Shown one piece after another: positions 711-1,890 of a DNA stretch of 10,851 nt. A program made the position numbers and the translations under genes. The notes under the pieces are model-generated. The model ran no database searches. It was not told the origin of the DNA and saw only the letters and a program-made list of their open reading frames with translations. This stretch comes from Candidatus Jordarchaeales archaeon (GTDB lineage: Archaea; Asgardarchaeota; Jordiarchaeia; Jordiarchaeales; Freyrarchaeaceae): positions 1-10,851 of the forward strand of contig JAWCFL010000053.1 in assembly GCA_038858525.1 (NCBI GenBank). The letters run 5' to 3'. The first letter of the stretch is position 1, and the number at the start of each line of letters is the position of its first letter.

Positions 711-1703
711 ATGAAGGAAGGAAGATATCATAGGCAGTGGCTCCTTGATAGTTGGGATCAAGATAAGGTTGGGAGTGCGCGGGTTTTTATCGCCGGAGTG
801 GGCGCTCTGGGTTCTGTTGCTGCGCTAAACTTAGCGATGATGGGCGTCGGGGAGCTGATTCTAGCGGACTACGATACTATTGAAGTGTCAAACCTCAGCA
901 GGCAACTTCTCTTCAGAGAGGATGACATAGGGCGCAACAAGGCTGAGGTAGCCCGTGAATTCCTCCTTGAAGTAAATCCTGACGTGTCCGTGAAAGCTTT
1001 CCCCAGTAACATAACCGAGGTTCCGAAAAGCGAGTATGAAGGGTGCAACCTGATAATAGATGGACTGGACACGTTTGAAGCTAGGCGATGGCTAAACTCA
1101 CTAGCTGTAGACATCAGAAAGCCTCTAATTCACGGCGGAATTTATGGTTGGTGGGGGAACATTCAAGTGGTTGTTCCATACGTCACACCCTGTCTTGAAT
1201 GCCACCCTTTAACACCGAGAAGAGAACTGGAGCAGCCCTGCACTCCAAAAGGCGAGAAGAGGAAAAAAAATGGAGGAGAAAATAGAGGCGAAGTTACGCC
1301 TGCCGTAGCAACGGTTAGCTGCATCATAGGAGGACTGCAAGCCCAAGAAGCAGTAAAGATAATACTTGGGTTGAAGCCGTTTGACAGCTACCTTTTTTAT
1401 GACGGTTTAAGTGGCGTGTTCACCTCTGTTAAGCTGGAGAGAAACCCTAAATGCGTGGTATGCGGTGAGGAGTATGCTACTGAGAGCATCGAGTTCGAGA
1501 TAAACCCGGAGGAAAACATACGGGAGCTTAAGGAGAGAATAAAAAAAGCGTTGGGTCTAAGCGATCCCGTAAATGTCACTTACGCGGCAAGGATCATAAG
1601 CGACGATGAAAAAGTGGGGGATGCTGTGAGGGAGGGGAATTACCTCTTTATTTATGACAAGACGAAGACTAAGCCATTCAAAGTGAAAATCAGGCTTTCT
1701 TAG
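711..1703 (+). CDS. Ubiquitin-activating enzyme E1 (ThiF/UBA-type adenylation domain plus C-terminal ubiquitin-fold domain), 330 aa
   Basis: RYHRQ, GVGALG (GxGxxG), DYDTIEVSNLSRQ, DGLDTFEAR, two CxxC Zn sites (CLEC, CVVC), a PCT catalytic-Cys motif (codon 1239-1241) and a ~70-aa beta-grasp-like C-terminal domain. ATG 711 is preferred over TTG 684 because it sits 2 nt after the E2 stop with GAGGA upstream. Confidence 0.93.
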   Translation: MKEGRYHRQWLLDSWDQDKVGSARVFIAGVGALGSVAALNLAMMGVGELILADYDTIEVSNLSRQLLFREDDIGRNKAEVAREFLLEVNPDVSVKAFPSNITEVPKSEYEGCNLIIDGLDTFEARRWLNSLAVDIRKPLIHGGIYGWWGNIQVVVPYVTPCLECHPLTPRRELEQPCTPKGEKRKKNGGENRGEVTPAVATVSCIIGGLQAQEAVKIILGLKPFDSYLFYDGLSGVFTSVKLERNPKCVVCGEEYATESIEFEINPEENIRELKERIKKALGLSDPVNVTYAARIISDDEKVGDAVREGNYLFIYDKTKTKPFKVKIRLS

Positions 1704-1836
1704 CTTCCTTTATCCCTTTCTCTTCCCAGTAACAGTGGACGCAAAGAAAAGAAGTTTTCTGGCAGTCTACGGGAAGAACCTTAGGAAACTCATAGCCACA
1801 TTTAGGGCATTTAACTTCCTTTAACCTGTAGCGCAA
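1690..1836 (-). CDS. Small CPxCG-type zinc-finger microprotein, 48 aa (not in the ORF track)
   Basis: My translation: MRYRLKEVKCPKCGYEFPKVLPVDCQKTSFLCVHCYWEEKGIKEAKKA*. It has CPKCG and CVHC knuckles, a TTG start 4 nt after GGTGA, and a TTATAAA box at 1890-1884. An in-frame GTG at 1857 is an alternative start. It overlaps the E1 3' end by 14 nt. Confidence 0.75.
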   Translation of the reverse strand: MRYRLKEVKCPKCGYEFPKVLPVDCQKTSFLCVHCYWEEKGIKEAKKA

Positions 1837-1883
1837 TATCTCACCGCCAACATACACGTACAGCGTTTTATGGCAGAACGGAA

Positions 1884-1890
1884 TTTATAA
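1884..1890 (-). promoter_or_regulatory. Putative TATA box for the zinc-finger microprotein
   Basis: TTATAAA on the minus strand predicts a start site near 1860, just upstream of the GTG/TTG starts. Confidence 0.5.

Follow-up and report, generated by a model that had tools for sequence, protein, structure and literature searches.

The locus examined here raises the question of whether a small zinc-finger gene, lying tail to tail with the last gene of an archaeal ubiquitin operon, takes part in ubiquitin conjugation or simply adjoins it. A previous sequence-only reading had proposed that the product could be a non-RING adaptor, a ubiquitin binder or a substrate for an operon with no visible E3, and had left room for an unrelated neighbor. 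The window, that is, the whole stretch of DNA analyzed (10,851 nt), is the entire contig C53 of a 2.09-Mb assembly in 63 contigs; it starts inside the ubiquitin gene and continues with the genes for E2 and E1 (Table 1). On the evidence discussed below, the microprotein is most likely an ordinary neighbor of the ubiquitin operon.

Table 1. Features of the window that bear on the zinc-finger gene and its surroundings
Feature	Position	Strand	Evidence
Ubiquitin, C-terminal Gly-Gly, 5' end cut by contig edge	1..217	+	Pfam PF00240
E2 ubiquitin-conjugating enzyme	247..708	+	Pfam PF00179, E 5e-36
E1-like enzyme, ThiF domain, last operon gene	711..1703	+	Pfam PF00899, E 5e-65
Zinc-finger microprotein gene, 48 aa, C4 (TTG start at 1836, TGA stop ending at 1690)	1690..1836	-	
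Convergent overlap of the 3' ends of the zinc-finger and E1 genes, 14 nt	1690..1703	.	
Shine-Dalgarno-like GGTGA, 4 nt before TTG	1841..1845	-	
TATA box TTATAAAT, the microprotein's own promoter	1883..1890	-	
MNT and HEPN genes	1973-3233	-	
wHTH-fused minimal nucleotidyltransferase	2490-3233	-	
Multi-pass membrane protein, 373 aa	3341-4462	-	
XRE-type HTH regulator adjoining purA	9181-9999	-	

The zinc-finger gene and its relatives

All the features that had been listed for the ORF are present in the sequence, namely its 48 codons, the four-cysteine motif CPKC-x18-CVHC (C-x2-C-x18-C-x2-C), an extra Cys25, a His34 inside the second knuckle, a TATA box, a GGTGA site and the overlap with E1. Some gene callers use an in-frame GTG at 1857, which yields a 55-aa form, but this start is local to this species, whereas the TTG is found at the same position in all ten aligned members and the longer form was therefore rejected. 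Upstream of the TTG, a Shine-Dalgarno-like GG.G[AG] motif (9-16 nt) and a [TC]TTATA box (49-71 nt; expected about 0.05 times per 100 nt) occur in 10/10 homologues, and from the position of the TATA box we infer a short, leadered mRNA. The gene also displays a third-position bias (885 vs 439 and 427). Because the TATA box, the Shine-Dalgarno motif and the start codon are conserved, pN/pS within families is 0.05-0.21, and a CPxCG combined with a CxxC is absent from all 39,777 frames of 40-100 codons in shuffled genomes, the sequence comparisons indicate that the ORF is a real gene under purifying selection. A spurious ORF, or an antisense by-product of the 3' end of E1, could be suspected from its shortness and its TTG start, yet is extremely improbable given the selection, the codon bias and the conserved expression signals, and in addition the ORF is kept in the second family of the class, where it does not overlap E1 at all.

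Within the ten aligned sequences C10, C13, C32 and C35 are invariant, together with Y3, K6, V8, P11, L21, D24, L31, V33 and K43. The view of the sequence-only reading that the ORF encodes a microprotein of the CPxCG type and has a promoter to itself is thus borne out by the conserved cysteines, TATA box, Shine-Dalgarno motif and start, and the loss of the four cysteines that it had named as the mark of a spurious ORF was seen in none of the ten homologues. In contrast, the extra Cys and the His that it had highlighted are not conserved between families: in the second family the extra Cys stands at a different position, with a Ser in one member, and His34 is replaced by Arg. A fifth ligand or a second site formed by these residues was rejected on the grounds that the Cys moves between families and is a Ser in one member.

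Homologues come only from the Asgard class Jordarchaeia/Freyarchaeia, two families of which hold the microprotein at about 45% identity to each other; the protein is basic (pI 8.3-9.3) and encoded once per genome. By profile search it was found in 9 of the 11 genomes of the class, one copy each. In G005, one of the two misses, the contig stops 114 nt past E1, close to the expected beginning of the microprotein gene. G008, the other, carries a transposase-like ORF (L052:2745-3605) 260 nt after E1, in the finger's usual place. The microprotein was not found elsewhere in this 95%-complete genome, either loss or an assembly gap being possible. One homologue is deposited as Lokiarchaeia and one also as Sigynarchaeota, and both lie in the Jordarchaeaceae gene order. 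Profile searches of 290 other Asgard genomes gave no full-length match, only weak partial ones, and no member outside the class was found among 5.8 and 1.8 billion proteins. Candidate paralogues in the genome and candidate homologues in other Asgard classes were set aside, since their matches covered generic knuckles only. No fused longer form was found, which is weak evidence for single-domain status. The term "unannotated" used by the sequence-only reading holds for its own track of ORFs and not for NCBI, where relatives are entered as hypothetical proteins; our search of the literature on Jordarchaeia for ubiquitin and zinc fingers returned a paper on virome and defence, whose title and opening lines of the abstract do not deal with this gene. 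Judging from these comparisons, the microprotein represents a previously unnamed, lineage-restricted family of Jordarchaeia/Freyarchaeia, which adds one class-specific family, with its start codon now fixed, to the many uncharacterized archaeal zinc-finger microproteins, and which could serve as a marker of Jordarchaeia.

A RING gene beyond the contig edge

No RING gene is found in the window, nor were an orthologous RING gene and nadA found in the present assembly, and one may ask whether the operon lacks an E3 ligase and the microprotein stands in for it. However, in the same-species loci L004 and L155 a small RING E3 gene lies directly upstream of the ubiquitin gene, and nadA is there too; the proteins of L004 are 99-100% identical to those of the window and L155 encodes an identical 55-aa protein. 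The upstream RING protein scores above the cut-off for both Prok-RING_1 and zf-RING_2, and the ubiquitin encoded after it in L004 and L155 is 77-79 aa long. Since the RING gene and nadA are missing together and the contig starts inside the ubiquitin gene, their absence indicates a gap in the assembly at the edge of the contig. In fact, the order RING-Ub-E2-E1 is found in every relative in which that stretch is assembled. By comparison with these relatives, the operon is the standard RING-Ub-E2-E1 set, with the RING gene just upstream, outside the window, and hidden by the contig edge. The statement that no E3 was visible is accordingly correct for the window and not for the operon, and this corrects a contig-edge artefact.

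With this premise refuted, substitution for the E3 ligase has only a very remote chance of being right. Proteins of the srfp type of RING E3 hold eight ligands in a two-zinc cross-brace, and the microprotein conserves four Cys only. It shares its x18 spacing with the second half of this RING protein, to which hhalign aligns it at 76%, and an origin by half-duplication of the RING gene was considered; it was rejected because 16 of 100 column shuffles that kept the Cys in place reached such a score, the Cys pattern explaining the likeness in profile. Ligation in this operon would rather be the job of the upstream RING protein, and the four-gene cascade of E1, E2, RING and ubiquitin works in vitro without an extra factor (PMC5654768; bioRxiv 10.1101/2023.07.25.550441). 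The E1-like enzyme, 330 aa long in relatives, shows a weak ubiquitin-fold match at its C-terminus besides the ThiF domain.

The set of genes that adjoins the microprotein is the same as in the operon of Ub, E2, E1 and small RING (srfp) described for Ca. Caldiarchaeum subterraneum and Asgard archaea (PMC5654768). The oppositely transcribed neighbor in Caldiarchaeum is Rpn11/JAMM, whereas here the microprotein occupies the convergent slot and two JAB genes lie on other contigs. Elsewhere in this genome (G000), five loci (C3:108160-108480, C4:65271-65972, C14:30481-30747, C1:94884-95132 and C1:14945-15094) hold genes resembling the ubiquitin system, i.e. an E2/UEV-like gene, a second ThiF-family gene, the two JAB genes, one of which encodes a hydrophobic tail at the C-terminus, and a further RING-like stretch. 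The second family (L035, L043 and L078) has a loosely spaced operon, in which ubiquitin and E2 are up to about 500 nt apart compared with about 30 nt here; in L078 the E2-E1 spacing likewise reaches about 500 nt.

Predicted fold and comparison with known fingers

CPxCG-related small zinc-finger proteins, which account for about 8% of small archaeal proteins, are defined as zinc-binding, single-domain proteins of less than 100 aa, other than ferredoxins and rubredoxins, in which 7-40 residues separate two Cys/His patterns, one or both of them CPxCG-like (PMC2253796). The microprotein displays CPKCG and CVHC 18 residues apart in a single domain of 45-53 aa, the x18 spacing being kept in all members. 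The matches listed in Pfam and NCBIfam include no ferredoxin or rubredoxin, a rubredoxin match appearing only at E 0.3 over the first knuckle, and by its sequence the microprotein falls within this group. It resembles Brz of Halobacterium salinarum (PMC2253796) in its size below 100 aa, its CPxCG with a second Cys pattern, its single domain and its own gene, but it has no homology above cut-off to Brz or to any named family (best E about 0.001-0.01). Unlike in Brz-type proteins, the second knuckle has no Gly and begins a predicted helix; it reads CVHC-Y or CVRC-S/A/F in the members and is never followed by Gly, which leaves the family outside the stricter definition, with two C(P)XCG motifs, that is applied to Haloferax (PMC11241148), where 5 of 14 purified C(P)XCG proteins were zinc-free.

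The AlphaFold2 model of the microprotein (pLDDT 86) shows a long beta-hairpin over residues 3-22, with strands 3-9 and 16-22 flanking the first knuckle (C10/C13), and a helix 33-46 that starts at the second Cys pair (C32/C35). This arrangement predicts one metal site, built from the knuckle at the hairpin tip and the first turn of the helix, in a treble-clef-like unit. In mononuclear treble clefs a zinc knuckle and the beginning of a helix each supply two ligands (PMC4506424), a layout that is present in the predicted model and fits it better than a zinc ribbon. The primary beta-hairpin amounts to one bridge residue in the model, and the best structural match reaches Z 3.0 (rmsd 2.1 over 39 residues). 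Weak matches (Z ≤3) were obtained with HPV E7 CR3, PHD, ClpX ZBD and CsfB, and zf_Tbcl and bL31 are weak fold neighbors at TM 0.65-0.67. No significant family emerged from searches with Pfam, NCBIfam, PDB sequences, Foldseek (E >1), VIA-align and ESM Atlas, a result that shows neither a new fold nor a lack of relatives. Among the mononuclear treble clefs, zf_Tbcl (PF13451), bL31, HPV E7 CR3, ClpX ZBD and CsfB/Gin share with the model a knuckle and a Cys pair at the helix start; they differ from it in that the matches are insignificant, the primary hairpin is barely formed and there is no match in sequence.

Two of these neighbors, bL31 and zf_Tbcl, would be in keeping with an accessory role in the structure of a housekeeping machine, for instance that of a lineage-specific protein associated with the ribosome, RNA polymerase or RNA, as would a small, basic, single-copy protein conserved through the whole class. 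Nevertheless, no ribosomal or RNA polymerase family scored above the cut-off, the fold matches stay at or below Z 3, and G008, with a transposase behind E1, yielded no copy of the microprotein; we consider such a role unlikely.

Ubiquitin-binding fingers have other ligand patterns, NZF being C-x2-C-x10-C-x2-C, UBZ CCHC or C2H2, and the treble-clef-based A20 finger having a spacing of about x11. None of these patterns is found in the family and none of these fingers is listed in the Pfam scans. This bears on a role of the microprotein as a Jordarchaeia-specific accessory of the RING-Ub-E2-E1 set, be it a ubiquitin binder, a RING adaptor or, with its tail rich in lysine, a dedicated substrate. 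RING (PMC4506424) and related fingers of the ubiquitin system are based on the treble clef, which would suit such an accessory, whereas the cysteine spacing is unlike that of NZF, UBZ and A20 and no ubiquitin-binding finger of Pfam or NCBIfam was matched.

Gene order behind E1

The microprotein gene is convergent to E1 in all loci in which both are assembled, in both families, and its 5' neighbors changed (the membrane gene, an inserted MNT-HEPN pair, a divergent pyrG) while the adjacency to E1 stayed. No homologue was found away from the ubiquitin operon; homologues that never co-occur with ubiquitin genes, which the sequence-only reading had foreseen for a real but unrelated gene, were thus not what was observed. 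Such persistence across families this divergent would favor an accessory of the operon. However, when 800 kb of the closed genome G006, of the other family, were compared with this genome, 19 of 40 convergent adjacent orthologue pairs (95% CI 32-64%) were still adjacent and convergent, with corresponding values of 16/34 for divergent and 82/125 for co-oriented pairs, figures that are lower bounds owing to the fragmented assembly and come from one genome pair and a simple ORF caller. The synteny of E1 and the microprotein is no stronger than this background, and pyrG and glyA are kept in the same block in both families.

The overlap with E1 that the sequence-only reading had listed proved ordinary. 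The two genes overlap by 14 nt in this genus and by 6 nt in the sister genus and are separated by a gap of 116-126 nt in the other family, and convergent pairs overlapping by ≤30 nt number 50/214 in this genome vs 1/66 in G006; the overlap tracks genome compactness.

Encoded on the opposite strand, with its own TATA box and Shine-Dalgarno motif, the microprotein gene is not a co-oriented, co-transcribed member of the operon, and its distribution does not follow that of the operon either: the same type of E1 occurs in 69 of 121 Asgard genomes, whereas the finger is confined to the 11-genome class among 301 genomes searched. No homologue was found in 20 E1 loci outside the class, and searches of other Asgard classes that have this operon too gave none. 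In these loci, which cover several other Asgard families, the convergent slot behind E1 usually holds a Yip1-domain membrane protein (L127:636-1418, L132:724-1482, L137:2471-3232, L142:778-1485 and L081:5988-6689 were checked by Pfam); 11 of the 20 loci encode it with a C-x2-C-x10-C-x2-C zinc ribbon at the N-terminus and 3 without. The Yip1 gene may be an older neighbor of the ubiquitin operon. A derivation of the finger from the detached N-terminal ribbon of this gene was rejected, since this genome has its own Yip1 orthologue on C1 near 72,280 with the x10 ribbon intact.

That another zinc-finger gene, the ribbon-Yip1 fusion, fills the slot in those 11 outside loci is a further point in favor of an accessory. 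With synteny at background, no co-transcription and the narrow distribution against it, we nevertheless regard an accessory of the RING-Ub-E2-E1 set as decidedly unlikely, and hold equally doubtful its variant, a stand-alone non-RING finger that would bind ubiquitin or the small RING and set the choice of substrate. If this variant held, it would give minimal archaeal ubiquitin operons their first accessory specificity factor and would show how the minimal Asgard ubiquitin system gains substrate specificity.

Because a RING E3 lies upstream, the gene has its own promoter, the synteny is at the level of the background, pyrG and glyA share the block and the overlap is ordinary, the unrelated neighbor, which the sequence-only reading had offered as its alternative, is the better reading, and the case for an adaptor or a non-RING E3 is not supported. 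The finger is probably a separately transcribed CPxCG-type microprotein whose place behind E1 reflects inherited gene order and not partnership. Going by the predicted model, the metal, probably zinc, would only hold the fold, and the protein would have no catalytic site and serve as a small module for binding, with the conserved face of the hairpin (Y3, K6, V8, L21, D24) and the basic helix turned towards a partner. We hypothesize that this partner may be a nucleic acid or a protein outside the ubiquitin cascade and, by analogy, that the microprotein could, like Brz, act as a small regulator.

Several observations concern the other genes of the window. The 373-aa membrane protein has no Pfam match here, although a relative matches PF27245 (AF_0692), and its gene directly precedes that of the finger in most members of this family, which is not so in the other family. 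The MNT and HEPN genes form an insertion that separates the membrane gene from the finger. In the window the HEPN gene is frameshifted after about 75 codons, its C-terminal half lying in another frame; L004 has the same two ORFs, the HEPN remnant of G001 has decayed further, and G002-G004 lack the pair at this site. The XRE-type regulator is kept in the pyrG-glyA block of this family.
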